Origin: Gammaproteobacteria bacterium
GTDB taxonomy: Bacteria > Pseudomonadota > Gammaproteobacteria > Porifericomitales > Porifericomitaceae
Reading direction: 5' to 3'
Assembly: GCA_014238615.1 (NCBI GenBank)
Contig: JABAAT010000024.1
Span: 104,234 to 168,233, forward strand
DNA length: 64,000 bases
This document shows, piece by piece, positions 7,627 through 27,638 of the stretch. How positions within the stretch are numbered: the first letter of the stretch is position 1; each line of letters starts with the position of its first letter. The notes under the pieces are model-generated. The model worked only from the letters and a program-made list of their open reading frames with translations, had not been told where the DNA came from and did no database searches. The translations under genes and the position numbers were made by a program.

Positions 7627-8438
7627 AAAACCCGCGCCGCCGCCTGGGCCAGCACTTTCTGGACGACACGGAAGTGGCTGAACGCATCGCCGAGTTGGCA
7701 ATCCCGGAAGGCCCTGGCGTGCTGGTGGAAATCGGCCCCGGCCGCGGCGCCCTGACCGCCCCGCTGCTGGAGCGTTGTGCCAGGCCGTGGGGGCTGGACG
7801 CGGTGGAGATCGACCCGATCCTGGCCACGGGGCTGCGCCGCCGCTGGGGAGAAAACAGCGGCCTGCGGCTGCATGAGGCGAACGCCCTGCACTTCGACTT
7901 CGCGGCCCTGGCGAAACTGCGGCGCAAACTGTACCTGACCGGCAACCTGCCCTACAGCATCTCCACACAACTGGTGTTTCGGTTGCTGCGCCTGGGGGAA
8001 CGCCTGGGCGGGATGCTGTTTATGCTGCAGGCAGAAGTCGCGTTGCGCGCCTGTGCGGCGCCCGGGGGCAAGACGTACGGTCGCCTCTCGGTGATGCTGC
8101 AAAGTTATTGTGAGACCGAGTTGCTGCTGCGCGTGCCGGCCAGCTCCTTCAAACCTCCCCCGCGCGTGGAGTCGGCCGTGCTGCGCCTGCGCCCCCGCGC
8201 ACCGGGGATACGCGTGCCGGCGGCCTTGGGAGAACTGACGCGGCGCGCCTTCAGCGCGCGCCGCAAGACGCTGCGCAACGCCCTGCGCGACTGCTGCGAG
8301 GCGCGCGACCTGGAAACGGCCGGCCTGGACCCGGAAGCACGCCCGGAACAGATCCCCGTGGAGGGCTGGCTGAAACTTGCGGCGCACCCGGGAAAGCGCA
8401 TCGAAGCCGCGTTGCGCGGCCTCCCCAGTCAACCGTAG
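7587..8438 (+). CDS. rsmA: 16S rRNA (adenine1518/1519-N6)-dimethyltransferase RsmA/KsgA.
   Basis: RLGQHFLDD, VLEIGPGRGALT and LTGNLPYSIST motifs are present. The start is uncertain and may lie slightly downstream, since the ORF overlaps the pdxA end by 40 nt. Confidence 0.85.
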   Translation: MAETRGRGAGDFLKNPRRRLGQHFLDDTEVAERIAELAIPEGPGVLVEIGPGRGALTAPLLERCARPWGLDAVEIDPILATGLRRRWGENSGLRLHEANALHFDFAALAKLRRKLYLTGNLPYSISTQLVFRLLRLGERLGGMLFMLQAEVALRACAAPGGKTYGRLSVMLQSYCETELLLRVPASSFKPPPRVESAVLRLRPRAPGIRVPAALGELTRRAFSARRKTLRNALRDCCEARDLETAGLDPEARPEQIPVEGWLKLAAHPGKRIEAALRGLPSQP

Positions 8439-8474
8439 CCACAAGTTCCCGCTGACGCGGTACTGTACTTCACC

Positions 8475-9038
8475 ATGCACCCCACGAACGACAAACTGCC
8501 TCTCCCCGGCGGCCTCCTGGGAACCCTGGTCCGGTTCCTGGAGCTGCCGGTGGAATACGCCGGGCGCCTGGCGGCCTGGCTGGTGCCCGTTCTGATGCTG
8601 CTCATCGTTTACGACGTCGGCATGCGCTATTTCTTTCACAGCGGTTCGGTGCGCCTCCAGGAGCTGGAATGGCACCTGTTCGCATTGGTCTTCCTGCTCG
8701 GGGCCGGCCACACCTTGTGCCATGACCAGCACGTGCGGCTGGACCTGCTGCGCCAGGGCCGCTGGATGAATGAGCGGCGGCGTCACTGGGTGGAAATCCT
8801 GGGCAGCCTGCTGCTGTTGCTGCCCTTTTGCCTGCTGCTGATAGACAGCTCACTGCCCTTCGCGGAACAGTCCTATCGACAGGCCGAAGGCTCCCCGGAT
8901 CCTGGCGGGTTACCGTACCGCTGGTTGCTCAAGGCCGTCATCCCGTTCGCCTTCCTGTTGCTGCTGCTGGCCGGACTGGCACGCCTGCTACGCTCCGTCG
9001 CGGCCTTGCGCGCCCGCTCCCCCAGCCCAGATTCCTGA
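8475..9038 (+). CDS. dctQ: TRAP transporter small permease (DctQ family).
   Basis: 187 aa with 4 TM helices of DctQ type and the typical N-terminal layout. It is immediately followed by a DctM gene. Confidence 0.8.
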   Translation: MHPTNDKLPLPGGLLGTLVRFLELPVEYAGRLAAWLVPVLMLLIVYDVGMRYFFHSGSVRLQELEWHLFALVFLLGAGHTLCHDQHVRLDLLRQGRWMNERRRHWVEILGSLLLLLPFCLLLIDSSLPFAEQSYRQAEGSPDPGGLPYRWLLKAVIPFAFLLLLLAGLARLLRSVAALRARSPSPDS

Positions 9039-9060
9039 TCCCACACGGCGGCTTTCCCCC

Positions 9061-10383
9061 ATGGATACCTCCTACTGGGCGCTGACCATGTTCCCGGCCC
9101 TGCTGCTACTGCTGCTGCTCGGCTATCCCATCGCCCCCACCTTGGGCGCCGTGTCCCTGGGCTTCGGCCTGCTCTTCCTGGAACCGGGGTTTTTCGATCT
9201 GCTGCCCCTGCGGATCTGGGGCATCATGACCAATTTCACCCTGCTTGCGGTGCCCCTGTTTATCTTCATGGGCATGCTGTTGCAGCGCTCCGGCCTCGCC
9301 GAGGAACTGCTGGAGACCACCAGCCTGCTGTGCGCCGGGCTGCGCGGCGGCATGGCGCTGGCGGTGATCGCGGTGGGCGCACTGTTCGCCGCCGCCACCG
9401 GCATTGTCGGCGCCACCGTAGTCACCCTGGGCATCATCGCCCTGCCCGGCATGCTACGTCACGCTTATGCGCCGTCCCTGGCTGCGGGCACCATCACCGC
9501 CTCCGGCACGCTGGGGCAGATCATCCCCCCCAGCATCGTGCTTATCTTGCTGGGGGATATCCTGGGGTTGTCGGTAGGCAAACTGTTCATGGCGGCGCTA
9601 CTGCCGGGGCTGCTGCTGGTGCTGTTGTTCATGGTCTATGTGCTGATACTGGTGCGGTGTCGTCCGGCCATGGCGCCGATGCCGCAACGCCTGGATCAGG
9701 CTTCCAGGAAACAGCTGAAACTGCGGGCCCTGCGTAGCCTGATGCCGCCGCTGCTGCTCATCGGCGGCGTTCTGGGCTCTATCTTCTTTGGACTCGCGTC
9801 CCCCACGGAAGCGGCTGCAGTGGGCGCGGCCGGCGCCCTGCTGCTCGCCGTGCTGCTCGGAAGCCTGCGCCTCCAGGGAGTCCGGGAAAGCGCGCGGCAG
9901 ACGGTACGCCTAAGCAGCATGGTGTTCCTGGTGCTCATCGGCGCCACTTCCTTCGGCCTGGTGTTCCGGGGCATGGGCGGCGACCGCATCGTGGAGGAAC
10001 TGTTGATCGCCATGCCAGGCGGCCCATGGGGCTTCCTGCTGGTCAGCATGCTGTTGCTCTTCGTGCTCGGCATGTTTCTGGACTTCCTGGAAATCTGCTT
10101 CATCGTGGTGCCGCTGCTGGGGCCCATCGCGCAGCAGCTAGGCGTGGACACGCTGTGGTTCGCGGTGCTCATCGCGATTAACCTGCAAAGCTCTTTCATG
10201 ACCCCGCCTTTCGGCTTTTCGCTTTTTTACCTGAAGGCGGTCGCACCGCCCGACCTGAAACTGGGGGTGATCTACCGCGGAGCCCTGCCCTTCGTCGCCA
10301 TCCAGGCAGTCGTATTGCTGCTGGTGGCGGCCTGGCCGGCCCTGATACATTGGCTGCCGGGACTCGTGGAGCGCGCGTCTTAA
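9061..10383 (+). CDS. dctM: TRAP transporter large permease (DctM family).
   Basis: 440 aa, polytopic, with DctM-type repeats. It sits directly downstream of dctQ. Confidence 0.85.
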   Translation: MDTSYWALTMFPALLLLLLLGYPIAPTLGAVSLGFGLLFLEPGFFDLLPLRIWGIMTNFTLLAVPLFIFMGMLLQRSGLAEELLETTSLLCAGLRGGMALAVIAVGALFAAATGIVGATVVTLGIIALPGMLRHAYAPSLAAGTITASGTLGQIIPPSIVLILLGDILGLSVGKLFMAALLPGLLLVLLFMVYVLILVRCRPAMAPMPQRLDQASRKQLKLRALRSLMPPLLLIGGVLGSIFFGLASPTEAAAVGAAGALLLAVLLGSLRLQGVRESARQTVRLSSMVFLVLIGATSFGLVFRGMGGDRIVEELLIAMPGGPWGFLLVSMLLLFVLGMFLDFLEICFIVVPLLGPIAQQLGVDTLWFAVLIAINLQSSFMTPPFGFSLFYLKAVAPPDLKLGVIYRGALPFVAIQAVVLLLVAAWPALIHWLPGLVERAS

Positions 10384-10485: not shown

Positions 10486-12485
<2,000 letters not shown>

Positions 12486-12596
12486 ACTTTCATCCTCTCC
12501 TCAACATGTAAAGTTTACGACTGGATTTAGGGAGTGTCTCAGGACGTCCGGAGGCTGTGCACAACCGGCGCAATCGGCCATCTGCCGATTATCTTG

Positions 12597-12652
12597 TTGG
12601 CACTATCCCCCGGTGAGTGCTACTATTATAGGTACCCTTCCGGGAAATACAA
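12597..12652 (-). promoter_or_regulatory. groESL sigma70-type promoter (TTGTAT-N16-TATAAT) immediately followed by a CIRCE-like inverted repeat (the HrcA operator).
   Basis: On the minus strand the sequence reads cTTGTATttcccggaagggtaccTATAATag-TAGCACTCaccgggggaTAGTGCCAA. The inverted repeat TTGGCACTA-N9-GAGTGCTAC (plus strand 12597-12623) matches the CIRCE consensus TTAGCACTC-N9-GAGTGCTAA at 15 of 18 positions. Confidence 0.65.
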
Positions 12653-12821
12653 GCCTCGGGCGCATTGCTGCCGAGCCGGGCTCCGCGGCCACCCGGAACC
12701 ACCAAGCGGTGCCGGGACGGCAACGCTTCCCGGGTGCTCCACGGGGCCTGCCAAGCGCCTGCCCCAAGCCGCAACGCAGGCGACGGCGGGGAAGCAGCGG
12801 CACTCCGTTATCATGTAGCTG

Positions 12822-13247
12822 ATGAAAAAGCCCACCACCACGCACTCCGACTCCGCCGGGGAGGCCGTGCTTCTGGTGCTCTGCAGCTGTCCCGGAGGAG
12901 ACGAGCAAGTCGCCCGGCAGATTGCCGCTGCATTGGCCGAACGGCGCCTGGCCGCCTGCGTCCATATTATCCCGGGCCTGCCCGCCCTGTTCCGCTGGGA
13001 GGGACGCCTGGAACAACAAGCCGAATGCCTGCTGCTGGCCAAAACCACGCGGGCCGCCTACCCGCGCCTGGAGCAGGAAGTGCTTGCCATGCATCCATAC
13101 AACGTCCCGGAAATCATCGCCATACCGCTCGCCCGGGGCCTGGAAAGCTACCTCTCCTGGGTCCGGGACAACACCCTGGCGGATACCCCGGACAGTCCAG
13201 CCGATCTGAACCGCGACTCCCCGGCGGCGCCCGGCACCATCACATGA
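12822..13247 (+). CDS. cutA: Divalent-cation tolerance protein CutA.
   Basis: 141 aa of the CutA1 family (VLLVLCSCPGGDEQVARQIAAALAERRLAACV). Its stop overlaps the dsbD start (ATGA). Confidence 0.85.
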   Translation: MKKPTTTHSDSAGEAVLLVLCSCPGGDEQVARQIAAALAERRLAACVHIIPGLPALFRWEGRLEQQAECLLLAKTTRAAYPRLEQEVLAMHPYNVPEIIAIPLARGLESYLSWVRDNTLADTPDSPADLNRDSPAAPGTIT

Positions 13248-15181
13248 ACAAGCCACGCGGCCCACTCCACGCCCAAAGCCGCGCCGCAGCCTGGCTCCTG
13301 CCGTGGTTGCTCGCGCTCGGCACGGTCCACGCCGCAGTCGGTGACAGCCTCTCCGATTTCCTGGGCCGGGATTCCTGGCACGACGACATCCTGGAAGTAG
13401 AGGAGGCCTTCCCGGTCATCGCCGAGCTGCAGCCAGCGGCGCGGCGTATCCTGCTGCACTGGGATATCCAGCCCGGTTACTACCTGTACCGCGACAAGTT
13501 CAGCTTCGCGGCGCGGGCGCTGCGCCTGGGCGAGGCCGGGCTGCCGGAGGGCGTGCCGGAGGAGGACCCGGAATTCGGCATGGTGCAGGTGCTGGAAGGC
13601 AACCAGACCATCACGCTGCCCTTCATCACGGAGGATAGCGGCCCGGTACCGGCGCACTTGGAAATAACCTACCAGGGCTGCAAGCGTGACACCCTCTGCT
13701 ACCCGGTAGCACGGCACGGCTTTGAGCTTCCCCTTGGAGACAGCGGCGCAGGCGGGGGCTCCGCCGTCTGGATTCCCGGCACGGCACTGGCGGCGCCCAC
13801 CGCCGTTGTCGCAGAACCCTCGCCCGTCATACCCGGCGGCGCTATTCAGGATTTCTTCAGCACCCTGCGCAACGGCAACGCCTGGCTCATCTTGTCGGCC
13901 TTCTTCGCCGCCGGCCTGTTACTGGCCTTCACCCCCTGCATTCTGCCGATGCTGCCCATCCTTTCCGGGATCATCGTCGGCGAACGGGCCTCCGGGCGGC
14001 GGGCCTTGCTGATCTCGGGAAATTACGTCCTGGGCATGGCCCTGACTTACGCCCTGTTCGGCCTGGTTGCCGGGCTCATGCACTACAACCTGCAGGCCGC
14101 CCTGCAACTTCCCTGGGTGCTGATCCTGTTCAGCGCGATCTTCGTGGCCCTGGCCTTGTCCATGTTTGACGTCTTCTCCCTGCAGGCGCCGGCGGCCCTG
14201 CAAACGCGCCTGGCGGCGCTCGGGAGCAACCGCGCCGGGCTGGTCAAGGCATCCGTGATGGGCGTTGCCTCGGCGCTCATCGTCGGCCCCTGCGTAGCAC
14301 CCGCCATCGTTGGAGCGCTGCTGTTTATCAGCGTCGCCGGTGAACCACTGCGCGGTGCCATGGCGCTGTTTACCCTGGGCCTGGGGATGGGTGCGCCGCT
14401 GCTGGCGGTCGGCGTTCTAGGCGGACATATCCTGCCGCGCGCCGGCCTCTGGATGGTGCGCATCCGGCAGGGCTTCGGTGTGCTCATGCTGGGAGTCGCC
14501 CTGTGGCTCCTGGGCCGCGTGCTGCCGGATGACTTCATGTTGCTGTTGTGGGCCGCCCTATGCATCGCGGTGGGGATCGTTTATCTGGGCGCTCTGGAAC
14601 CAGCGCCCACGCCGCGCCTGCTCGACCGCTTCCCCAAGGCGCTGGGCGCCGTCCTGCTCATCTATGGAGCCGCCCTGCTGGTCGGCGCCACCGTGGGCGG
14701 CGGCAGACCGGCCCAACCACTGGCCGGGCTGCGCGGCTCCGAAACAGGCGATGCCGCCTCAAGCCAGGCCGACTTCCGCACCATCAGCGACTACTCGGAA
14801 CTGCAGGCCGCCCTGGACGAAGCCGGGCGCATCGGGCAACCCACCCTGCTCAAGTTCCACGCCGAATGGTGTGTGACTTGCAAAAAGCTCGACGACGTCA
14901 CTTTCCCGGCTCCCGAAGTACAGGCCGTTCTGTCCGGGGCCATGCTGCTGCTGGCGGATGTCACCGACTACGAGGCGCACCGGGGGCTGCTGCGGAAACT
15001 GGACCTGGTGGGGCCACCGGCGGTGCTGTTTTTCGGCGCCGACGGTCGGGAGCGCAGCGTCTATCGGCTCCAGGGCTTTCTGAACGCCACCGATTTCAGC
15101 CGGCGCGCGCGCCAGGCTTTGTGGGGTGACGGGGAAAGCGCCCGGGGAAGCGCGGGGCAGGCGGCGACGGGCGATGCGTAA
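13244..15181 (+). CDS. dsbD: Thiol:disulfide interchange protein DsbD (646 aa).
   Basis: It has a signal peptide, an N-terminal DsbD alpha domain, a central 8-TM domain containing a CxxC (CVAP not shown; conserved membrane Cys pair), and a C-terminal thioredoxin-like domain (WCVTCK). The maximal ORF from 12665 is a frame artefact across cutA. Confidence 0.85.
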   Translation: MNKPRGPLHAQSRAAAWLLPWLLALGTVHAAVGDSLSDFLGRDSWHDDILEVEEAFPVIAELQPAARRILLHWDIQPGYYLYRDKFSFAARALRLGEAGLPEGVPEEDPEFGMVQVLEGNQTITLPFITEDSGPVPAHLEITYQGCKRDTLCYPVARHGFELPLGDSGAGGGSAVWIPGTALAAPTAVVAEPSPVIPGGAIQDFFSTLRNGNAWLILSAFFAAGLLLAFTPCILPMLPILSGIIVGERASGRRALLISGNYVLGMALTYALFGLVAGLMHYNLQAALQLPWVLILFSAIFVALALSMFDVFSLQAPAALQTRLAALGSNRAGLVKASVMGVASALIVGPCVAPAIVGALLFISVAGEPLRGAMALFTLGLGMGAPLLAVGVLGGHILPRAGLWMVRIRQGFGVLMLGVALWLLGRVLPDDFMLLLWAALCIAVGIVYLGALEPAPTPRLLDRFPKALGAVLLIYGAALLVGATVGGGRPAQPLAGLRGSETGDAASSQADFRTISDYSELQAALDEAGRIGQPTLLKFHAEWCVTCKKLDDVTFPAPEVQAVLSGAMLLLADVTDYEAHRGLLRKLDLVGPPAVLFFGADGRERSVYRLQGFLNATDFSRRARQALWGDGESARGSAGQAATGDA

Positions 15182-15222
15182 GGCCCGTCCACCGGCGTAA
15201 CCAGCGGGGCTAACGAAGAACA

Positions 15223-15750
15223 ATGCCCAGGCCGTCACGCGGCCGCGCTTCGGCAGGCGCGGCCGCCTTACTCACATGCGTCCTCACCGTGGCCGCGCCA
15301 GCCGGGTGCTTACACGTTGAACAAGCGGATCACGGGGCGTTGCCGAAGCTGACACTGCGACAGCTGGACGGCTGGCTACGCGAACTCTCGGAAGAATGGA
15401 GGGGCCGGGTGCTGCTGGTCAACCTGTGGGCTACCTGGTGCCTGCCCTGCCGCAAGGAGATCCCCGAATTCATTGAACTGCAGGAGCGGCACGGCGCTGC
15501 GGGGTTGCAGGTCCTCGGCATCGCTCTGGATGAGGAGGAGCGGGTCAGGCAATACTTGGCCGACCATGCGGTGAACTACCCGATACTGCTGGCCGGAGAT
15601 CAAAGCTATCGGCTGACTGAAGAACTCGACAACCCGGAATTCCTGCTGCCTTTTTCCGTCATCGTCAACCGCTCCGGCCGCATCGTTTTCCGGAAAACAG
15701 GCCGTCTGCACAGCGCCGAAGCGGAATCCGTCCTGCTCTCCCTGCTTTAG
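15223..15750 (+). CDS. Periplasmic TlpA/ResA-like thioredoxin-fold thiol-disulfide oxidoreductase.
   Basis: WATWCLPCRKEIP is a CxxC motif in a TlpA-like fold. It has an N-terminal lipoprotein-like signal and sits downstream of dsbD. Confidence 0.75.
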   Translation: MPRPSRGRASAGAAALLTCVLTVAAPAGCLHVEQADHGALPKLTLRQLDGWLRELSEEWRGRVLLVNLWATWCLPCRKEIPEFIELQERHGAAGLQVLGIALDEEERVRQYLADHAVNYPILLAGDQSYRLTEELDNPEFLLPFSVIVNRSGRIVFRKTGRLHSAEAESVLLSLL

Positions 15751-16010
15751 GCCCCTGCACCGCCCCGCTCCCGGGACGAAGCGCCCGCCGTGACGAAACG
15801 TGTTGATGCTTTTTACAGCACTTTTGGTCACGGCCGGGACGGAGAGGCTGACGGCTTGAAAATTGAAAATCGAAGGGCTTTTGTCTTATAATCAGCGGGG
15901 AAGTTCTTTGAAAAGAATCGATCTTCTCGTCAAATAACCAGAATCCGGAGGGAACTCTCCCCTCTGGAAATCTGGAGTGTTGAAGTATTCCGGAGGCATA
16001 TTCATTCGTC

Positions 16011-16457
16011 ATGGCAAAGCTCGTACTGGTGTTGCACGGCCCCAACCTGGGCCGGCTCGGTCAAAGGGAGCCGGAAATCTACGGTACTTCCACCTTGGCC
16101 GAAGTGAACAGTACCCTGCAAGACCAGGCCGCCGACCTCGGCCTGGAGCTACGCTGCTTCCAAAGCAATGCGGAACACGCCCTGCTGGAATGCATCCACG
16201 CCGCGGCCGGGGAGGCATCCTTCATCATCATCAATCCCGGGGCCCTGACGCACACCAGCGTGGCCCTGCGCGACGCATTACTGGACGCGGGACTACCCTT
16301 CATCGAGGTGCACATCTCCAATCCCTATGCACGTGAGCCCTTCCGCCACCACTCCTATTTGCGGGACGCGGCCACGGGAGTCATCTGCGGGCTGGGCGTA
16401 CAGGGCTACGAACTGGCCCTGCAGGCCGCCGCCGGCCAGCTGCGCGCGACGCACTGA
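16011..16457 (+). CDS. aroQ: 3-dehydroquinate dehydratase type II.
   Basis: [20 protein letters not shown] and [16 protein letters not shown] are AroQ signatures. Conserved aroQ-accB-accC synteny supports the call. Confidence 0.93.
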
Positions 16458-16464
16458 AGCCGCC

Positions 16465-16893
16465 ATGGACCTGCGTAAGATCAAAAAGCTCATGACGTTG
16501 CTGGAAAATTCCGGCCTGGATGAACTGGAACTGCGCGAGGGTGAGGAAACCATACGCCTGCGCCGCAACAGGGTTCTGGAGCACGAAACCGCCCCGGCGG
16601 CGACGCCGCAAGACGGGGAGCGCGGAAAACAACAGCCGGAGACGGAACAGGAGGCATCCGGGCACACGGTTCGATCCCCCATGGTGGGCATCTTCTACGC
16701 TTCCCCCAAGCCGGACAGCCCGCCTTTCGTGAAAATCGGACAGCAGGTACGCAAAGGCGAGGTGCTGTGCATCATTGAAGCGATGAAAGTCATGAACCAA
16801 ATTGAGGCTGACGGCGACGGTGTGATCACTCGGGTTCTGGTGGAAAACGGCGCCCCGGTGGAATACCGGCAGGCCCTTTTCCAGCTGCGCTGA
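16465..16893 (+). CDS. accB: Biotin carboxyl carrier protein of acetyl-CoA carboxylase.
   Basis: The biotinyl domain motif [12 protein letters not shown] is present, with an Ala/Pro-rich linker. An ATG at 16465 gives 142 aa. Confidence 0.93.
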
Positions 16894-16922
16894 CGAGTCC
16901 CGCCGCCACCCACGGCGCCGCC

Positions 16923-18269
16923 ATGTTCAACAAGATTGTGATCGCCAACCGTGGCGAGATCGCCCTGCGCATCCTGCGCGGCTGTAAAGAGCTGGGTATC
17001 CAAACCGTGGCTGTTTACTCCGAGGCCGATCGTGAGCAGAAACATGTCCTGCTCGCCGACGAATCGGTTTGCATCGGCCCTCCGCCCCCCTCCGACAGCT
17101 ACCTGCATATACCGGCCGTCATCAGCGCCGCTGAGATCACCGACGCCGAGGCCATCCACCCAGGTTACGGTTTCCTTGCCGAAAACGCTGACTTCGCCGA
17201 GCAGGTGGAGCAAAGCGGCTTTTGTTTCATCGGCCCCCGCCCGGCTACCCTGCGTCTCATGGGCGACAAGCTGCGCGCCAAGGAAGAAGTTCAGAGGCTC
17301 GGCCTGAACTGCGTCCCAGGCGGCACCGGGGCCCTGCCCGAGGGGTCCGAAGCCTGCCTGACCATGGCCAGGCACATCGGCTTCCCCGTGCTCATCAAGG
17401 CCGCCGCCGGCGGTGGCGGACGCGGCATGCGCGTGGTCCACAGCGAAGCCATGTTGCTGAACGCCGTGAGTCTCACGCGCGCCGAAGCCGGAACAGCTTT
17501 CGGTGACAACACCCTGTACCTGGAAAAATACCTGGAGCGCCCCAGGCACATCGAGATCCAGGTGCTCGCCGACGGCAAGGGGAACTGCATCCACCTGGGA
17601 GAACGCGATTGCTCCATACAGCGCCGCCATCAGAAGCTGATCGAGGAGGCCCCGGCTCCCTTTATCGAACCCAGGCAACGTGAAAACCTGGGGAAACGCT
17701 GCGTCGAGATCTGCCACTCCCTGAACTACCGCGGCGCCGGCACCATGGAGTTCCTATACGAAAACGACAACTTCTACTTTATCGAGATGAACACCCGTAT
17801 CCAGGTGGAGCACCCGGTCACCGAGATGATTACCGGCATCGACCTGGTCAAGGAGCAGATCCGTCTCGCCGCCGGGGCCGAGCTCGGCATCAAGCAAAAA
17901 GAGTTGCGCCCGCGCGGATGGGCCATCGAGTGCCGCATCAACGCCGAGCACCCGGAAACCTTCCGCCCCAGCCCCGGCACCATCACCCACTACCACGCCC
18001 CCGGAGGCCCCGGGGTGCGCATGGACACCCACATCTACCAGAACTACAGCATTCCCCCCTACTACGACTCCCTCATCGGCAAACTGGTTGCAAGCGGCAA
18101 CAGCAGGGAGGAAGCCCTGGCCCGCCTGGACAATGCACTGCACGAGATCATCATAGAAGGCACGGACACCAACCTCCCCCTGCTACGCCGCCTGGTAAGA
18201 GACGCCGACTTTCGGAACGGAGCACTGCACATCCACTTCCTGGAACAATGGATGAAAAGCGAAGGCTGA
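16923..18269 (+). CDS. accC: Biotin carboxylase.
   Basis: 448 aa with full-length identity to AccC ([19 protein letters not shown]...). Confidence 0.97.
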
Positions 18270-18459
18270 ACCCGGCGCCCCTCAAGGCTCCCCCCGCGCA
18301 ACACATACGAACGCGGACAACCACCCCACGTATATGATCCCCCGAATCAAAACCCTGGTGCCGAGGCAAAAACGCAAAAGGTTCTGTCCATCTTCTCCAG
18401 CCTTGCCGGTGGGCGCTCCCACCTGGGACATGGGCGCGGGCTTTGCTTCGCTCCTGTTT

Positions 18460-21400
18460 CTAGGGGGCGATGACCGGTCCCTTCTTGATGAGCTCCAGGA
18501 GTCGCTGTTTACTCTTCCTGGTCCATTGCTCTACGTCTTCCGGGGTGCGTAGAGCGGCGCCTTGGAGTTCCGCCTGCTGTGCTTCCGGTTCTGTTTGCCG
18601 CACTGCCTGCAGGAAGGCCTCTCTGAAGAGCTGTGGGAAAGCGGCCTTGTTCCTGCTCCAGGTTTCCAGGGAAACCTGCTCCAGGGATTGTCTTAGCTCC
18701 TCCGTGGTGCCTATGGGGCCCTTGTCTATTTCCTGGTCCAGCCCGGCCGCAACCAGGATCTTGTACTGCTCTTCCTCTTCGAGTTTCCGCCAGCTCGTTG
18801 CCTCCTGGAGCCTGCCTTTCTCCTGTTCGTAAGCCGCCGCATACCCCTGCTCGGCCGCGATGAGGATGTTGCGTAGTTCTGTTGCCAGTTTCTGCTCCAT
18901 GATATCCATGGGATTTTCCGACTGGAGCAGGTTGCGGTTCTGCCTGATTGAACCAAGTTGTTGACTCAGCTCCCTGGCGATGGGGAGGCCTTTTGCGTGT
19001 ATCAGCAATTCGAGGAGTTGCCTGTATTGTCTTGTGCGCTTCTGTTGGAGCTCTGCCTGCTCTCTCCATTCCTGGATCTCCTTTTGGAGTTGCTTGCGCC
19101 GGGCGTGGATGGCCTGTAACCTCCCTTCGCCTGGCCTGCCCTGCATGTCCTTGAGGTGACTGGTGTCCGGGGGCTTAGGGAAGGGGGGGTCTCCTCCTAT
19201 TCTTTCGGCCAGGGCTGTCACCTCGTTCAAGTATTTATCCGCTGCATCCGCCTCCTCCCCGGGTTGGCACGAGATGCCCGCTTCCTGGAACAGCTCCCTT
19301 AGCTCAGTGAGCTGCGGGGCGCCGATGGTGGGGCTCTCTCCGTGGAATTCCGCGGCGTGGATCTTTCCCTGGACCATGACGTCCGCCCGCAGGGGTTTGC
19401 CATCGAGGCTCGCGTGCAGGCGGCCAGCGTCGCAGAGGCTCATGATGACGCTGTCTATGACGTCCCTGGGCCAGCCGTATGGGGGTGCCGCGAAGTGCTC
19501 CCTGATCTGCCCGCCCTTCCTGCCGGGTCCTACCTGCTCAAGCACCATGGCGCATACGGGATGCTGCTCCACGGGGCCTCGATATCCCAAGGGTCCCAGG
19601 GGGGCGTCCGAGCCTGCCTGGGTGAGATCCAGAACCTGCCTCCAGCGCTTGTCGTCCACATGGTGGAATTCGTGGAACAGGCGCTCCTGTGCATTCCTTG
19701 CCCCCTGGATGAGCTTCTTGATGGTGCTCGCCTCCTGGATTTCCTCGCCCCCGCCCTGGAAGATCCTGACCTCCCGCATGAGCTTTTGCACCAGCCTCTT
19801 GCGTTCCTGCTCGGCGTCCCGGACCCGGGTCGCCAGTACCCGGCGCACCTCCTCGTCCTCGGAGGAGACGGGGGAGCCCTTGTCGGCCAAGGTTTCCCTG
19901 GCCGCTTCCTCGCCGGCGATCGCTACAGAGAGATCGTCCGAGTGTTCCCTGGGAATAAAGGCATACAGCAATGGACTCTCTGTGCCGGCGGCACGGGCGG
20001 TCTGCTCTACTTCTTTCTCCCCGGTGTTCCAGCCGTCCCGGATCCAGACGGGGATGGCGGTGCTGTCTCCCCTGGGCGCCTCGTGACCGATGTGCCAGGT
20101 GAGCTTGCGGGGTGTCTTGTATTCTCCCTGCATCAGGCTGATAGACTCCACGTACTCCTTGGTCTCCTCCTGGAGAACCTCGGTGCGTGTGACGCTGAGC
20201 CGCGCCTGGTCTTCCATGAATGCCTTGCGACGTTTTCTGAACTCCTTCTCCCATTCGCTTCCTTCCCGGGTCTGCAAGGCGTATTCGTCCCCCTCCAACT
20301 TCACCAGGATGCCCTCCTGTACCAGCTTTTCCAGGGCTTCCGGGAGTTCCTGCCGCAGCTTGTCGCGATCCCGCTCCAGGTCTTTCACCAACAGGTCTGT
20401 CAGGCTTTCCGTGGTAGCGCGCACCCCCAGATCGGCTTCCTTCCCGCGCGGCAGCCTGCCGATCAAGAACACCAGGCTGCAGATGCCGGCGCGCAGATCA
20501 CCCCCGGGGGTGCCATCGCCCAAGGCGGTGATCCGGTCATGGACCTCTCGCGGCAACTGGCCGGACTGCAGCAGGTTGGATGCGATCTGCCCGTACAGGA
20601 AGTCCGTGGGCACCACGGTGCCCAGGGGATCCTCCGCGGTGGCGCGGGCCGCCTCGTAGATGATGCGCAGCTGTGTGCGCAGCCGGTCGGTGCCGCCAGT
20701 GTGGTGCAGGGAGCGCAGGATTTCCACCCAGAAGCGGCGCCGCACCGGAAGCAGCGGGTAGTCCTGGATCAGGGCTTCCTCGTCCTCGGCGGCGGTTTTA
20801 AGCCTGGTGTGTGACAGCTGCCGGTGCGCCTCGCCGGAATTCCATTCCAGTATTTCGCGTAACGAGGAGATGCAGTTCTCTTTCTTGGCCAGCACGACCT
20901 TGCGCACGACCTGCTCCACGTCGTTGTCGGAAAGCTGGACGTTCACCGTGAAGAGGCCCTGGAGCGGCTGCAAGGCGGAGGCAGCCTGCAGGGCCGACTG
21001 ACCGATCCCCAGGAGCAACAGCTTGCCGCCGAAACGCTTGCCGCAGGCCTCAACCACCTCCTGGAAATCCTGGGTACGCGAGCTGTCCTCGCCGAGGTAT
21101 GGCTGGACCTCGTCCAGAAGGATCGCGGTACAGGGGATGGCCGAGCGCTCCGTCAGGACCTCCCGGATGGTGGCCACGAACTCATCGGTGTTGATGTCGT
21201 CCACATCCTTGTATTGTGCGCGCAGCAAGACGCCGACGTCCTTTGCATCTTTGGCGAAGTTCGGATTGATTTTCAGCAGGGTCTTCGAGACGTAGGGGCT
21301 GACGTACATATCGCGCAGCTCCTGTTCAAAATTGCGCTTCTCCTCATGGAGCGCGGCCACCATGGGAGTGTACAGCTTGTTCCGCCTGAGCCACAGGGTG

Positions 21401-21915
21401 AACTTCGCCTGGGGGTAGCTTGCGGGCAACCTCGCCGATCTGAACACAACGGCCAGCACCGCCAGGCGCACGCTGCCCTTGCCGCCGACATCCGCCCCCA
21501 GCGTCCCGGCCGCCGCATGCAGGCCGCTGCCGCTACTGCCGAGGGTGGAGAGTTCCAGGAGCAGTTCTTTGATCTCCCCCGACACTCCGGCCAGGGAGCG
21601 GGCCTTCGCGCCGTCTTCCGGGAATTGATAGTCCTCCCACAGGAAGCGCAACACCTTGGCCAGGTGAGATTTACCGCTGCCGTAGGGGCCGCTGACCCAG
21701 ACCGCGGGCTGTTGCGGCTTGTCGCAGTGCTCAAGATAGGATTGCAGGATGCGGATCAGCCCCTCCTGGTATCCCCCGTCACAGACAAAACGCTCCAGCT
21801 CAAAGCGCAGAACCGCGCGGTTACCCGAGGTCATGGCATCGCTCAGCTCGGCGACCCCGTCGTTCAGAAGCTTGTTATCCCAAGGAGCTTTTTCGTAGAT
21901 TTCCTTGTTTTTCAT
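18460..21915 (-). CDS. BrxC/PglY-like BREX-type P-loop ATPase (about 1152 aa). It is an orphan with no other BREX components.
   Basis: The N-terminus MKNKEIYEKAPW mirrors the BrxC start. A Walker A motif (VWVSGPYGSGKSHLAKVLRFL) sits at the BrxC-typical position, with a Walker-B-like ILLDEVQ. The long alpha-helical C-terminal region includes PYGWPRD. The ATG at 21915 is preferred, though the ORF extends to 22026. Confidence 0.7.
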   Translation of the reverse strand: MKNKEIYEKAPWDNKLLNDGVAELSDAMTSGNRAVLRFELERFVCDGGYQEGLIRILQSYLEHCDKPQQPAVWVSGPYGSGKSHLAKVLRFLWEDYQFPEDGAKARSLAGVSGEIKELLLELSTLGSSGSGLHAAAGTLGADVGGKGSVRLAVLAVVFRSARLPASYPQAKFTLWLRRNKLYTPMVAALHEEKRNFEQELRDMYVSPYVSKTLLKINPNFAKDAKDVGVLLRAQYKDVDDINTDEFVATIREVLTERSAIPCTAILLDEVQPYLGEDSSRTQDFQEVVEACGKRFGGKLLLLGIGQSALQAASALQPLQGLFTVNVQLSDNDVEQVVRKVVLAKKENCISSLREILEWNSGEAHRQLSHTRLKTAAEDEEALIQDYPLLPVRRRFWVEILRSLHHTGGTDRLRTQLRIIYEAARATAEDPLGTVVPTDFLYGQIASNLLQSGQLPREVHDRITALGDGTPGGDLRAGICSLVFLIGRLPRGKEADLGVRATTESLTDLLVKDLERDRDKLRQELPEALEKLVQEGILVKLEGDEYALQTREGSEWEKEFRKRRKAFMEDQARLSVTRTEVLQEETKEYVESISLMQGEYKTPRKLTWHIGHEAPRGDSTAIPVWIRDGWNTGEKEVEQTARAAGTESPLLYAFIPREHSDDLSVAIAGEEAARETLADKGSPVSSEDEEVRRVLATRVRDAEQERKRLVQKLMREVRIFQGGGEEIQEASTIKKLIQGARNAQERLFHEFHHVDDKRWRQVLDLTQAGSDAPLGPLGYRGPVEQHPVCAMVLEQVGPGRKGGQIREHFAAPPYGWPRDVIDSVIMSLCDAGRLHASLDGKPLRADVMVQGKIHAAEFHGESPTIGAPQLTELRELFQEAGISCQPGEEADAADKYLNEVTALAERIGGDPPFPKPPDTSHLKDMQGRPGEGRLQAIHARRKQLQKEIQEWREQAELQQKRTRQYRQLLELLIHAKGLPIARELSQQLGSIRQNRNLLQSENPMDIMEQKLATELRNILIAAEQGYAAAYEQEKGRLQEATSWRKLEEEEQYKILVAAGLDQEIDKGPIGTTEELRQSLEQVSLETWSRNKAAFPQLFREAFLQAVRQTEPEAQQAELQGAALRTPEDVEQWTRKSKQRLLELIKKGPVIAP

Positions 21916-22514
21916 AAGCTCTATAACTCCGTTGCTTGAAGTGATAGGAACGGCGTGGTAGCCCCAGCCGTCCCGGGCACCCAACAGGCGATGGTTATTA
22001 TCTTCATATTCGCCGGGCGGCTTCAAAATCCCCCGTGGACAGCGTGGAGAACTCCATAACCCTGATCATATAGTAACCCGCCGGGTATTCCAGAATGTGG
22101 GCCGGCACCACGCGGGCCGGGCAACGGCCCAAGGCACCGGGAATGGAGGGGCTCCCCCCACGGCAGGCGTTTTGCGCCGCCACACGGCACTCGGCGGGAT
22201 ACCGGCCATTCCGGACCTTCCACGCACCCGGCAAGGGAAAATAACTCTTCTGAGCGGCGCCTGCGGCCTGGCTGCCCCTGCCTGGGCCAACTGCTTTCCC
22301 GCACCTCCTCCGAGGGACGCCGGGATCTCCGCCCGCCGCCAGGCCACGGCGGGAACACACCCGTGCCGTCTTACAACTGTTTACATTGACAGGGAAGCTG
22401 ATAGTTACTACTCTCACAATAATCCGTGCGTTGGCCAGGCTACCGGCCTGGAACGCTTTCCAAGCTTTTCAGGACTGCAGGCGCCGCACTCACAATCCAT
22501 AGGGAGGTGATGCC

Positions 22515-23510
22515 ATGGAATCATCTAATGACACGCAACCACGTAATATCGTGATCTGTTGTGACGGCACGGGAAACGAATATGGGGAAAACAACACAAA
22601 CGTTGTACTGCTGCACTCGCTGCTTGAAAAAGACTCCAGGCAGTTGGCTTTTTATGACCCGGGCGTGGGTACCGGGGGGTGGGAATATGAACATGGAAAG
22701 ATAACGAAAAAATGCGACCTGGCAACCGGCGGCGGTCTGCAGAAGAATGTGGAAGACGCCTATCGCTACCTGATGCATCCCTATCGGGAAGGGGACAAAG
22801 TCTATCTCTTCGGCTTCTCGCGCGGGGCTTTCACGGCCCGCTCCCTGGCGGGCATGTTGCATAAAGTGGGATTACTGACGCCTGGCAGGGAGAATATGGT
22901 GAAGTATGCCAGTAAGATGTATAACACCAAAAACAACAAGGAACTGTCTGCCGACTTCAAGAAGGACTTCTCGCGTTCCTGTCCGGTGTATTTCATCGGC
23001 GTCTGGGATACAGTGAGATCGCTGTATCTGAACGCCGGAAAGCGCTTCCATGATGACACCCTGAACCCCGATGTGAAGTACGGCTGTCATGCTTTAGCCA
23101 TTGACGAAAAGCGTAAAGACTTCCCTCCCTCCCTGTGGGATGAATCATCCAGGACCCCCGAACAAACCATTGAGCAAGTATGGTTTCCGGGGGTGCATTC
23201 GGATGTAGGCGGCTGGTACGATGCGCGCGGACTCTCCAACGGGGCACTGCACTGGATGGCGAAAAAGGCGAAACGCCGCGGGTTGCGGTTGTCCCTGGAT
23301 CTGAAGGAACTTAAGCGCGATTATTCCCCGGATGCGCATGACGAACTGCATGATTCTTATGAGGGAATTTATCGTTTACGTGGAACAAGCGTACGCAAAA
23401 TCCCGGAGGGGGCGAAACTGCACCGCAGTGTGGAGGAACGGATGTCCCGGGAGGAAAACGACTACCGGCCTAAGAACCTGCCGGAGAACCGCTCTTGGGT
23501 GAATGACTGA
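22515..23510 (+). CDS. DUF2235 (Tle1-like) alpha/beta-hydrolase, a putative lipase/esterase (331 aa).
   Basis: IVICCDGTGNE near the N-terminus and the GFSRGA nucleophile-elbow motif, plus HSDVGGWY, are hallmarks of the DUF2235 T6SS-phospholipase-like catalytic domain. It has the lowest GC in the window (about 50%). It is divergent from the BrxC-like gene. Confidence 0.7.
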   Translation: MESSNDTQPRNIVICCDGTGNEYGENNTNVVLLHSLLEKDSRQLAFYDPGVGTGGWEYEHGKITKKCDLATGGGLQKNVEDAYRYLMHPYREGDKVYLFGFSRGAFTARSLAGMLHKVGLLTPGRENMVKYASKMYNTKNNKELSADFKKDFSRSCPVYFIGVWDTVRSLYLNAGKRFHDDTLNPDVKYGCHALAIDEKRKDFPPSLWDESSRTPEQTIEQVWFPGVHSDVGGWYDARGLSNGALHWMAKKAKRRGLRLSLDLKELKRDYSPDAHDELHDSYEGIYRLRGTSVRKIPEGAKLHRSVEERMSREENDYRPKNLPENRSWVND

Positions 23511-26500
23511 CCGGGGGCTCCGGGCGGCGGGGTTGCGCTGTACGGTTCCTGGTTTTGTTGGGGACACCGCAGCCGCCGCCTCCCGGGGTGTCTATGATGA
23601 GGTGATCTCCGGGTTGCAGCTGGAGGCTCTGGCAGGGCTGCAGTTCCTCCACGTGGTTGCTTCCACTTCTTTTGAGGCGGTTGCGGCCCGGTTGACCGGG
23701 GGCACCTCCTTTTAGTCCCTGTGGTTGCCTTCTGCGGTTGGAGGTAATCAGGGATACGGTCACGGGCTGCTGGAAACTGAGCTCCCTGGTGAGGCCTTCT
23801 CCTCCCTTCCAGCGTCCCGCTCCCCCGGAGTTTTCCCTGGCCTGAAAGCGCTCCACCCGGATGGGGTACCTGGCTTCCAGTATCTCGGGGTCGGTGATGC
23901 GGGAATTGGTCATGTGGGTGTGCACCGGGCCGGCGCCCGGGAAGTCCAGTCCGGCGCCCGCTCCTCCCGCCAGGGTCTCGTAGTACTGGAATTCCTCGTT
24001 GCCGCAGCAGAGGTTGTTCATGGTGCCCTGGGAGTCGGCCAGGACGCCCAGCGCGGCAAAAATGCAGTTCACGACGGCCTGGCTGGTCTCCACGTTGCCG
24101 GCGGCGACGGCCGCAGGATACTCTGGGTGCAACAAGGAAGGCCTGGGGATGATCAGGGTCAGGGGTCTCAGGCAGCCCTGGTTCAGGGGGATGGGGTCGG
24201 ATACGAGGCAGCGCAGGGCGTAGAGTACGGCCGCCTCGGTGACAGCGCGCGGAGCATTGAAGTTGCCGGGGTGAATGGGGCTGGTGCCGGTGAAGTCAAA
24301 GCTTGCGGTGCCGTTTGCCGGGTCTGTTTCAATGCGCAGGTGGATCAGGGCGCCGTCGTCCAGGCGGCGCTCGGCCTGTCCCGAGCGGGCGGCGCGCAGG
24401 GCCTCCCTGACGCAGTGCGCGGCGTTGTCCCTCAGGTATTCCGTGTAGGCCAGCACGGTGTTTTCCCCGTGTTGCCGAAGCATGCGTCTCAACTCCTCCT
24501 GCCCGGCACGACAGGCCGCCCACTGGGCGCGCAGGTCGGCGAGGTTGTCCTGCGGGGTGCGGGCCGGGTGCGGGCCGGCCTGCAGCAGCCGAAGCAACTC
24601 CCGCTCGCGCGGGCGCTGCTCCTCTCCGCAGTAGAGGAAATCCCTGATCAGGACGCCCTCCTCTTCGATGTGCCTGGAGTCGGGCGGCATGGATCCCGGG
24701 ACCGCGCCGCCGATGTCGGCGTGGTGGCCGCGCGCGCCCAAAAAGAAGCACAGCGTGCCGTGCTCGTTAAAGAGCGGCTGGATCAGGGTCACATCCGGGA
24801 GATGCGTGCCGCCGGCGTAGGGGTCGTTCGAGACCCAGGCCTGGCCGGGGCGCAGTCTGCTCGCCTGGCGTTGCTTCAGAACGCGCACCGCAACACCCAT
24901 GCTGCCAAGGTGCACGGGGACATGCGGGGCATTCGCCACGAGTCGACCTTCGGCGTCAAACAGGGCACAGGAAAAATCCAGCCGCTCCTTGATGTTGACG
25001 CTGGTGGCGGTGCGCTGCAGCACCGCCCCCATCTGCTCCGCCACCGCCATGAAACGGTTGTTGAAAACCTCCAGGCGCGCCGGGTTCGGGCCCTTGCTCC
25101 TGGCACCCGCCTTGCGGCGGCGGCCTCGACTCCGCTCCAACAGCAGCATGCCATCGCTCTCGTTTCCCTCTTTCAACCGCGCGCGCCAGCCCGGCTCAAT
25201 CACCACCGTGGTGTGCGCTTCCAGGATCAGGCCCGGGCCGGAGCGCGGCGGCTTCCCGCGCAGCGCTTCGCGCGATGCTATCCAGCTCTCACGCCAGCGG
25301 CCGCCGGCCAGGAACCGGGTTTCAGAACGTGCCGCGGCGTCCGGCTCCTCCACGCTGCTTTGCGGCATGGCGCGCAGGGCGCCGGGGGGCGGCGCGGCGG
25401 CCTCAGCCTGCAGGAGCTCCAACACCAGGGGGCGGTCCGAATGCAGGTATCCGTAAGTCCGCCGATGGCGCTCTTCAAAGTCGGCCCGCATCGTCAAGGC
25501 CGTGGCGTAAGGCACCCGCAGCAGGGTATCGCTGCCTTGGTAGCGCAGGGCGGCGCGGTACTCCACGGTGCAGTGCGCCGCTTGTGCTCCCTGGGCGCGC
25601 AGTTCGCCGAGCGCCGCCTCACCCAGTTCCAGGTGCAGCTCTTCCCAGTGCGCCTCCGATGTTTGCTCCAATCGTTGTTCCACGCCGCGTTCACGCACCA
25701 CGCGCAGGCTGGCCAGTCCAGTACCCCAGGCGGACAACACCCCGGCCAGGGGCGGCAGCAGCACCTTGGACATGCCAAGGCGTTCGGCCACCCGGCAGGC
25801 GTGCTGCGCGCCGGCGCCGCCGAAGCAGAGCATGCTGTGCCCGGCGGGGTCGTCACCGTGCCGCGCGCAGAGCCGCTTGATGGCGCGCGCCATGTTGTCG
25901 GTGGCGATCTCCAGGAACATGTCAGCCAGGGTCTCGGCCCGGTATCCTCCACCCACCTGTTCGGCGAGTCGGGCGAGATGCTCGCGCGCGGCGTCGGCGG
26001 AGGGCGGCTGCGCGCCGTCCGCGCCGAACACGGCCGGGAAAGAGTCGGGCAGCAGTCTGCCGGTGCAGAAATTTGCATCGGTGACGGTCAGCGGGCCGCC
26101 GCGCCGGTAGCTGACCGGTCCCGGGTCGGAACCGGCGCTGTGCGGACCCACCTGCAGGCGCCCGCCGGCGTAACGCAGGATGGAGCCGCCGCCGGCCGCC
26201 ACCGAGTGGATCTCCAGCATCGGGGCGCGCAGTAGATAACCGGCGACGCGGCTTTCCATGGCGCGCTCCAGTTCACCGGCCCAGTGCCAAACGTCGGTGG
26301 AAGTGCCGCCCATGTCAAAGCCGATGAGCCGGGTGTGCCCGGCGCGGCGCCCACATTCGCTGCCGCCCACCACGCCCCCGGCCGGCCCGGAATAGACGCT
26401 GTCGCGCCCCCGGAAATGACCGGACGCGGCCAGACCGCCGTTTGACTGCATGAAAAACAGGCGCGGGCCGCCCTTCTGTTCCGCACCCAAAGCCTGCGCC

Positions 26501-27174
26501 AGGCCCCCGAGGCGGCGGCGCAGCACCGGCCCAAGGTAGGCATCCACCAGGGTCGTGGCGGCACGGCTTACCAGGCGCGGCAACGGCTCCGTCTCGCTGC
26601 TCAGCGAGACCTGTGGGAAACCCAGTTCCCGCGCCAGTTCGCCCAGGCGCTGCTCATGCGCGGGATAACGGTGTCCATGCAGCAACACCACGGCCAGGGC
26701 CTCCACCCCCTGCTCCCGCGCCGCCGCCAAGTGCGCACGCGCCAGCTGCTCGTCCAAGGGGCGCAACACCAGGCCCTTGGCCGAGACCCGCTCCTCCACC
26801 TCGATAACCTGCTCATACAGCGCCTCGGGCAAACGAATGCAAAGATTGAAGAGCTCCGGACGATCCTGGTAGCCGATACGCAGCACATCCCCGAAGCCGC
26901 GCGTGGTGAGTAACGCGGTGCGGGCGCCGCGCCGCTGCAGGAGCGCGTTGGTGCCCAGTGTGGTACCCAGGTGCAGCGCAGCAATCACCCCCGGCGCCGG
27001 CACCGCGCCGGCTGGCAGACCCAGCAAGCGCCGCACGCCTTCCAGCACCGCGTCCGGATAGCGATCCGGCGCCTCGGAGAGCAGCTTGAGCACATGCGTG
27101 CGTCCATCCGGAGAGACCGCCACCACGTCGCTGAAGGTGCCGCCCCGATCGATCCAGAAATGCCAACCGTTCAT
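23470..27174 (-). CDS. oplAH: Fused 5-oxoprolinase / N-methylhydantoinase A+B (HyuA-HyuB fusion, OplAH-like).
   Basis: The N-terminus [15 protein letters not shown] is the hydantoinase A start, and the C-terminal half carries hydantoinase B motifs. It totals about 1235 aa. The ATG at 27174 is preferred over the GTG at 27195. Confidence 0.85.
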
Positions 27175-27638
27175 GCCGCGGGACTTCCGGGGCACCGCCC
27201 CCCGCGGGCGACAACGCGAGGCGGGAATTTTGCAGCGGGGCGACCGGCGCCGTGTTCATCACGCATGCACAGATTATATGCCTCACCCGGGCGCGCTTCA
27301 CCCGGCGCCCCCCATCAGCGCGCACGATCGGCGCGCGTGACACGCACGGCACCGCACAAGCAACACGGCGGCCGGGTCGCGAAAAAATACGCAACTTTGC
27401 GCTATGATCGAATGCATCATACCGGCTTGCATAAGGCCGCAGCCTTACCTCAAGCTGTGTCGACATGCTGGAAGAACCTGGTGCACGAAGGAAGCCGGAA
27501 GCTTCGATCCACGGCGCCACCTCATGCACTCGCGGCGCGCTGCGGCCGCCCGCGCAGGGAAGCACTCTCACCCGACATCACGGGAAGTCCGCCTGCCGCC
27601 CCCTCCCGGCTGGAATCCCCACGAATGAAACACCATTA

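Follow-up and report, generated by a model that had tools for sequence, protein, structure and literature searches.

Introduction

The 64-kb window analyzed here (the whole stretch of 64,000 nt between positions 104,234 and 168,233 of contig JABAAT010000024.1, from a gammaproteobacterium of the Porifericomitaceae; coordinates refer to the window unless another contig is named) carries an intact open reading frame (ORF) for an ATPase that resembles BrxC of the bacteriophage exclusion (BREX) systems, and it raises the question of how such a gene comes to stand by itself among genes of other kinds. The decay of defense operons is a well-known phenomenon. A preliminary description of this DNA, made from the sequence alone, left two options, namely, that BrxC-like ATPases function outside BREX or that the gene is a decaying remnant. 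We find that the ORF encodes an authentic BrxC and that it is probably a BREX relic, the one gene still left from a type 1 brxA-brxB-brxC-pglX-pglZ-brxL operon. The remnant option is favored by a brxB stub next to the gene, a syntenic full BREX operon in the sister locus, the loss of the arginine finger, and a gene-specific acceleration, and a BrxC acting outside BREX, while conceivable, is not needed to account for the locus.

Results

The ORF Encodes a Full-Length Type 1 BrxC

The brxC ORF (18460–21915, minus strand) runs from an ATG at 21915 to a stop codon at 18460–18462 and encodes an uninterrupted P-loop/AAA+ ATPase of 1,151 residues, the product of which begins with MKNKEIYEKAPW and has the sequence VSGPYGSGKSH at residues 74–84. 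The preliminary description had placed an ORF of ∼1150 residues at these positions and named it BrxC from its N terminus, its Walker A motif, and its length. The ORF stands, on the minus strand, and so does the name: the NCBIfam model NF033441 (BREX_BrxC) matches residues 2–1139 with 690.5 bits (curated cutoff, 400 bits), and the PADLOC BrxC model PDLC02489 matches residues 1–1149 with 1275 bits, compared with 118 bits for the next BrxC model. Matches to Pfam are all sub-threshold; the BrxC winged-helix (wHTH) family PF25791 scores 18.2 bits against a gathering score of 27, and the corresponding region aligns inside the full-length models NF033441 and PDLC02489. The protein is collinear with type 1 BrxC, including the solved Acinetobacter structure (PDB: 9zdx; Kaiser et al., NAR 2026; PMC13326643), over its 1,151 residues; its N-terminal AAA+ module, which holds the Walker A Lys, the Walker B Asp-Glu pair, and the sensor-2 Arg, precedes a central and a C-terminal region, and identity to Acinetobacter BrxC is low (E = 9e-21 over residues 32–843). 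By sequence and architecture, the ORF is an authentic full-length BrxC.

Two related identities were considered and rejected, given the model scores and the operon history. PglY of the Streptomyces Pgl/type 2 BREX systems belongs to the same broad P-loop family and shares the PADLOC model group BrxC-PglY, but type 1 BrxC is the best model, exceeding the second by >1100 bits, the sister operon described below is of type 1 with brxL, and the window has no pglW, pglX, or pglZ. The DUF499-centered BREX-related (BR) systems (PMC12839542) also have ORC/Cdc6-like ATPases, in non-BREX, restriction-modification-like systems, but the window protein matches BrxC at equivalog level, lacks an adjacent helicase, methyltransferase, or nuclease, and descends from a canonical operon.

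The exact protein is found on eight assembled contigs, in identical context in all of them, and is the single member of its 90%-identity protein cluster. The window locus and two further copies (L001 and L002) are 99.99%–100% identical, and hence there are no single-nucleotide polymorphisms for a population-level estimate of the ratio of nonsynonymous to synonymous substitution rates (dN/dS). The window brxC is, in sum, a new and fairly divergent member of the BrxC family in a degraded context.

A brxB Remnant Lies at a Site That Holds a Complete Operon in the Nearest Relative

In a collection of 5.8 billion proteins, the next-best match to the window BrxC beyond itself is P0002, with 55% identity over the full length, all others being at ≤49%; in neighbor-joining trees, the two proteins are sisters in 100 of 100 bootstraps. 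P0002 is encoded in a complete type 1 brxA-brxB-brxC-pglX-pglZ-brxL operon on ENA ERZ20067936 contig ptg000040l (L003), which is the BREX locus of the nearest sequenced relative (PADLOC scores: BrxA 315, BrxB 224, PglX 1490, PglZ 874, and BrxL 920 bits). This operon adjoins an oxoprolinase gene (79%–80% identical to that in the window) and two Tle1-like genes (51%–58% identical to that in the window), and the two loci are syntenic on the oxoprolinase/Tle1-like side.

Directly upstream of the brxC start, the window retains the last 36 codons of a brxB gene (21928–22035, minus strand), corresponding to BrxB residues 151–186 of 187. The stub is seen by DNA alignment, by tblastn with the relative's BrxB (residues 151–186 against 22035–21928 on the minus strand, 61% identity, E = 2.2e-10), and in the match of its translation to the PADLOC BrxB model PDLC02469 (E = 4.6e-11, profile positions 154–182 of 184); brxB therefore once preceded brxC at this site. 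When the relative's BrxA, PglX, PglZ, and BrxL were searched against the 64-kb window by tblastn, nothing was found below E = 0.2, and none of the large ORFs carries a methyltransferase domain, the search for PglX having been confined to the window. Of the type 1 gene set, then, pglZ, pglX, brxA, and brxL are absent from the 64 kb and brxB persists only as the 36-codon remnant; by none of the gene criteria tested is the locus a BREX system. The preliminary description had reported brxA, brxB, pglX, pglZ, and brxL all missing from the 64 kb, which is right as far as intact genes are concerned but overlooks the stub. The window and L003 thus share a sister brxC, the oxoprolinase and Tle1-like flank, and a collinear junction between the brxB 3′ end and brxC; the relative, however, retains brxA, a full brxB, pglX, pglZ, brxL, and a gene for an M78 peptidase, whereas the window has only brxC and the 36 brxB codons.

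DNA homology between the window and L003 begins within the brxB 3′ end (∼22017–22035) and continues into brxC. At the brxB-brxC junction, 17 nt are deleted relative to L003, among them the stop codon of brxB and the AAGGA ribosome-binding site, with the result that the reading frame of the stub continues into the brxC ATG. The stub itself has kept neither an ATG nor a GTG start codon; the open frame extends 5′ to an in-frame TTG at 22026, and initiation there (1,188 residues) is conceivable, since no brxB stop codon intervenes any longer, but unlikely, as homologues initiate at the MKNK methionine that corresponds to the ATG at 21915. Beyond the stub, a 479-bp spacer (22036–22514) that contains the 5′ deletion junction separates it from the Tle1-like gene; blastn and tblastn revealed no similarity of this spacer to brxA, the 5′ part of brxB, the M78-peptidase gene, or the intergenic DNA of L003. 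On the other side of brxC, a spacer of only 190 bp (18270–18459) lies between its stop codon and that of accC, where pglX-pglZ-brxL would be expected; it resembles neither the brxC-pglX spacer of L003 nor the DNA downstream of the relative's accC. A sensitive blastn search of the two spacers against L003 and L084 gave nothing but chance-level matches.

In the relative, the groESL-cutA-dsbD-redoxin-accB-accC block and BREX do not share a contig (L084 for the block; the two contigs measure 782 kb and 363 kb), and accC is followed on L084 by an intimin-like gene and genes of type II secretion system (T2SS)/type IV pilus type, not by BREX; none of these downstream genes (intimin-like, T2SS E and F) occurs in the 64-kb window. 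The brxC-accC junction therefore reflects a large deletion or else a rearrangement, in either the window lineage or that of the relative.

Compared with L003, the stub has a dN/dS of 0.23, with synonymous differences in 11 of the 22 codons that specify identical amino acids. That the stub still carries this signature of purifying selection suggests that the operon was truncated recently on the time scale of its divergence from the relative. As for other genomes, a BrxC scan of GTDB genome contigs gave no confirmed relative; alignment of the oxoprolinase against GTDB genomes returned 80 loci, all at ≤52% identity and none from a close relative; and AccC has matches at 66%–70% identity, which place the organism no more closely than as deep-branching and Gammaproteobacteria-like.

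The Trans-Acting Arginine Finger Is Lost

The residues that bind ATP in Acinetobacter BrxC are K78 (Walker A), E269 (Walker B), and R430 (sensor 2), and the partner subunit supplies K326 and R330 (PMC13326643). The R330E mutation abolishes N-domain self-association, restriction, and methylation, whereas basal ATPase activity and BrxB:PglZ binding are retained (PMC13326643). We compared the corresponding positions of the window protein with conservation columns drawn from 128 diverse BrxC representatives. The columns of K82, D268-E269, and R413 are 99%–100% conserved, and all of these residues are present in the window protein: the lysine in the Walker A motif GPYGSGKSH (residues 76–84; 21664–21690), the Asp-Glu pair in the Walker B motif LDEVQ (residues 267–271; 21103–21117), and the sensor-2 Arg (20677–20679), which aligns with Acinetobacter R430 and is Arg in 128 of 128 representatives (all on the minus strand).

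The residues supplied in trans have fared differently. In the alignment to PDB 9zdx_C, K326 and R330 correspond to P317 and L321 at the two ends of the segment PLQGL (residues 317–321; 20953–20967, minus strand). Column 321 is Arg in 127 of 128 representatives and Lys in the remaining one, and the window Leu is the only non-basic case, unique among 130 proteins; column 317 is Lys or Arg in 119 of 128. P0002 has Arg at both positions, and the window codons differ from those of P0002 by single bases (CGG to CCG at 317 and CGC to CTC at 321). With P317 and L321, the window protein lacks a defining catalytic element of the BrxC family, the trans-acting arginine finger. The P-loop Phe (column 77; Phe in 127 of 128) is likewise replaced by Pro (F77P), as is Gln272 after Walker B (91% conserved; Q272P), and there is a D404H replacement. 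Compared with Acinetobacter BrxC, the window protein has Leu for R330 and Pro for K326 and for the P-loop Phe, and its BrxB, PglZ, and PglX partners are gone.

Global degeneracy of the protein was considered and rejected, since only 5 of the 110 columns with ≥90% conservation are lost, against a family mean of 4.0 (SD 2.8). P0002, which is encoded in an intact operon, departs from six such columns (e.g., R338H and P1110L) and keeps 104 of 110; single departures taken alone are therefore weak evidence of decay.

BREX Was Resident in the Common Ancestor

Nei-Gojobori estimates for the window versus the relative give a synonymous divergence (dS) of 1.01 for brxC, 1.00 for accC, and 0.79 for the oxoprolinase gene. 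Because the dS of brxC matches that of the housekeeping flanks, the divergence times are equal, and BREX was at this site in the common ancestor. The preliminary description had ascribed a foreign composition to brxC; on the contrary, its GC content (0.622) and GC content at third codon positions (GC3, 0.792) are those of accC (0.622 and 0.804) and secA (0.628 and 0.798). The composition of brxC is host-like, BREX is long-resident and fully ameliorated, and the foreign-looking gene at the locus is the Tle1-like hydrolase.

With 118 close outgroups, 147 lineage-specific changes are assigned to the window BrxC and 107 to its sister (∼1.4-fold; mean chi-square 6.4), and the excess is spread across residues 1–950. 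The same comparison for AccC shows no asymmetry (16.7 versus 17.0). The Nei-Gojobori dN/dS values are 0.105 for accC and 0.18 for oxoprolinase; that of brxC is taken up below.

The intact 3.4-kb ORF had been taken to argue for function in the preliminary description. Of the possible substitutions in the brxC ORF, however, 3.9% create a stop codon, and an unconstrained copy has a 50% chance of staying open at 0.5% neutral divergence and a 5% chance at 2.2%, such that intactness is compatible with recent orphaning. A neutral ORF of 3.45 kb would stay open half of the time up to ∼0.5% divergence, and since the truncation appears to be recent, the open frame does not by itself speak for function.

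A Proposed Course of Events and the Evidence against It

These observations are consistent with the following scenario. The common ancestor of the window organism and its relative would have carried a type 1 BREX operon next to oxoprolinase and Tle1-like genes. One deletion would have taken brxA together with ∼150 codons from the 5′ end of brxB, so that the remaining 36 codons of brxB now run in frame into the start of brxC, and a second deletion or rearrangement would have removed pglX, pglZ, and brxL just past the brxC stop codon, joining brxC to the 3′ end of accC. The surviving brxC is without its partners, without the native operon promoter region, and without its original ribosome-binding site, and in place of the arginine finger, which drives ATP-dependent BrxC-BrxC association, it encodes leucine. 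According to published genetics, BREX methylation and restriction require PglX, PglZ, BrxB, and BrxC oligomerization, and a lone brxC therefore cannot run BREX. Most likely, the gene no longer functions and has so far escaped disruption, its ORF presumably being open because it was orphaned recently, given the age of the split from the relative, and not because a function requires it.

Several observations weigh against this interpretation. The window protein keeps 105 of the 110 conserved columns, with the Walker A Lys, the Walker B Asp-Glu pair, and the sensor-2 Arg all intact, and its 1,151 codons contain no stop or frameshift, both deletions having spared the ORF. The preliminary description had proposed dN/dS against the closest homologues as a gauge of purifying selection, and the pairwise value for brxC, 0.33, is indeed well below 1, although dS is saturated and the estimate covers both lineages. 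When diverse outgroups are used, the BrxC rate ratio drops to 1.12 and is not significant. If the whole rate excess had accumulated under strict neutrality, it would have brought several stop codons with it, and some constraint may therefore persist. It should also be noted that the search for displaced partner genes described below was indirect and confined to PglZ.

Alternative Explanations

The same observations could mean that brxC has been kept by selection after the loss of BREX, either alone or together with unlinked partners, which we consider unlikely. With a remodeled ATP site, such a protein might serve as a C-terminally dimeric DNA-binding or basal ATPase protein, as a regulator, or as a decoy for phage anti-BREX inhibitors. 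The intact 3.45-kb ORF, the retained columns and nucleotide-binding motifs, the host-like codon composition, and the fact that both truncations end just outside the ORF would all fit this explanation, as would the substitution excess without any stop, which is improbable under full neutrality, and the basal ATPase activity and BrxB:PglZ binding of R330E Acinetobacter BrxC. A promoter may also be at hand: a sigma-70-like match (TTGAAG-18-GATAAT, 9 of 12 positions) is located inside the brxB stub (21997–22026, minus strand), ∼82 nt upstream of the brxC ATG, and, if active, would provide the orphan gene with a promoter of its own, but it is a consensus match only, one of three observed in the stub region where 0.7 are expected. 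However, there is no known BrxC activity that is independent of BrxB, PglZ, and PglX; the window protein is alone among 130 in missing the arginine finger; the operon has lost its native promoter region and brxC its ribosome-binding site; the same orphan did not turn up in a second lineage; and the coding signature of the stub points to a young orphan state, in which intactness needs no selection. The more specific proposal of an arginine-finger-less orphan under selection for a BREX-independent role, be it as a constitutive C-terminal DNA-binding dimer or as a sink for OrbA-like anti-BREX proteins, is improbable by a good measure.

Alternatively, a chromosomal rearrangement might have split the operon behind brxC, with pglX-pglZ-brxL now at another place in the genome and still working with brxC. 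This we regard as very improbable, even if the placement of accC and BREX on different contigs in the relative means that the brxC-accC junction reflects a rearrangement, or else a large deletion, in either lineage. Because a rearrangement could have relocated the three genes, the PglZ of the sister operon was searched against the protein collection; beyond the self-match, all hits were 48%–51% identical, with no PglZ closer than the general 50%–51% clade and none with the source signature of the window genome. The two top matches from that clade (P0242 and P0243) are in complete BREX loci with their own BrxC, from other samples, and the contigs of several further PglZ matches have the same lengths as contigs that gave BrxC matches of this clade. 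This result speaks, if indirectly, against a split system, as do the in-place deletion of brxA and of most of brxB, given that BrxB is required, and the loss of the arginine finger.

Finally, horizontal insertion of brxC, alone or in a fragment, into a recombination hotspot that happens to carry BREX in the relative is extremely improbable: the Tle1-like neighbor is compositionally atypical and the relative's island contains an integrase fragment (rve_3), suggesting a variable region, but brxC has the dS of the flanking housekeeping genes and a fully host-like GC3, the two brxC genes are mutually closest among the 5.8 billion proteins with 100/100 support, and the brxB stub aligns collinearly with the junction of brxB and brxC in the relative.

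Surroundings of brxC and Features of Related Loci

On its lower-coordinate side, brxC faces accC (biotin carboxylase, identified by Pfam; 16923–18269, plus strand; 84% identical to P0122 on L084), with which it is convergent (190 bp from stop to stop), followed by accB, aroQ, a redoxin gene, dsbD, cutA, and groES/EL; the spacer contains one terminator-like hairpin (18436–18451), on the plus (accC) strand. On its higher-coordinate side, a 599-bp gap leads to a divergent gene for a Tle1-like/DUF2235 alpha/beta-hydrolase (22515–23510, plus strand; PF09994, 2.2e-76), which is a conserved flank of the BREX site, and then to the oxoprolinase/hydantoinase A+B gene (23470–27195, minus strand; identified by Pfam), which is the syntenic anchor to L003. 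The Tle1-like gene has a GC content of 0.533 and a GC3 of 0.633, compared with ∼0.79 for the host GC3, has no PADLOC match, and overlaps at its 3′ end with the convergent oxoprolinase gene by 41 bp.

Besides brxC, the ORFs of at least 600 codons in the 64 kb are those for RnfC, LptD, DsbD, oxoprolinase, SecA, and FtsI, plus one antisense shadow ORF of the oxoprolinase gene (23725–26235) without a Pfam match; other genes include those for SurA, ArgJ, MurE, MurF, and a thiolase, and an Rfam scan of the 64 kb returned no RNA families. The preliminary description had called all flanking genes housekeeping, which agrees with these large ORFs, the shadow ORF aside, but not with the Tle1-like/DUF2235 neighbor, which is not clearly a housekeeping gene and is of atypical composition.

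At the relative's BREX locus, the two Tle1-like genes (L003 3415–6026) are tandem paralogues, and the ∼100 bp between them (4714–4814) that repeat, at 82% identity, the 3′ end of the oxoprolinase gene (window 23711–23804) suggest a local tandem duplication. Directly upstream of the BREX operon, and divergent from it, is a gene (L003 6807–8024, minus strand) for a helix-turn-helix/M78-peptidase protein that is not found in the window; it has weak PADLOC matches to CapP (E = 1e-12) and RmrA (E = 2e-8) and could be a regulator of the locus. On L084, accC is followed by a gene for a 1,908-residue intimin/invasin-like protein (11939–17665, minus strand) with a repeat of 225-bp period (short matches at 13172–15657). 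The dsbD gene is called as two genes in the relative (L084 6320–8091; 363 and 233 residues), compared with a single gene for 645 residues in the window (12665–15181), a difference that could stem from a frameshift in the relative or from an error in its assembly.

Three main-clade BREX operons (L086, L087, and L088, at ∼6098–9999) have a two-gene insert between pglX and pglZ, encoding an SMC/AAA_23-like ATPase of 881–884 residues and an AlbA_2/SLFN-HATPase_c_4 protein of 418 residues, which may be an embedded accessory defense module. Two of these loci (L086 and L087, at 16896–19976) also carry four tandem genes for 206-residue CbiA/ParA-like proteins spaced by exactly 820 bp, either a tandem repeat or an assembly artifact.

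Discussion

The window brxC opens no long-standing question, and a search of the literature on orphan or incomplete BREX found nothing relevant. If an orphan BrxC under selection were nevertheless to prove true here, it would be the first case of a BrxC acting outside a BREX operon. As a probable relic, the gene calls for caution in annotation: a scan for defense systems would call an incomplete BREX or a lone BrxC at this locus, and the intact 3.4-kb ORF tempts one to a functional reading, whereas the brxB stub and the syntenic full operon in the relative mark the locus as a snapshot of the decay of a defense system. It would, moreover, be a clean and datable example, in which a long-resident, fully ameliorated BREX operon appears to have been cut by two events and the catalytic interface of the surviving protein is already damaged. 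Loci of this kind may help to calibrate the rate at which defense islands erode, and they warn against the assignment of new standalone functions to orphan components of defense systems.

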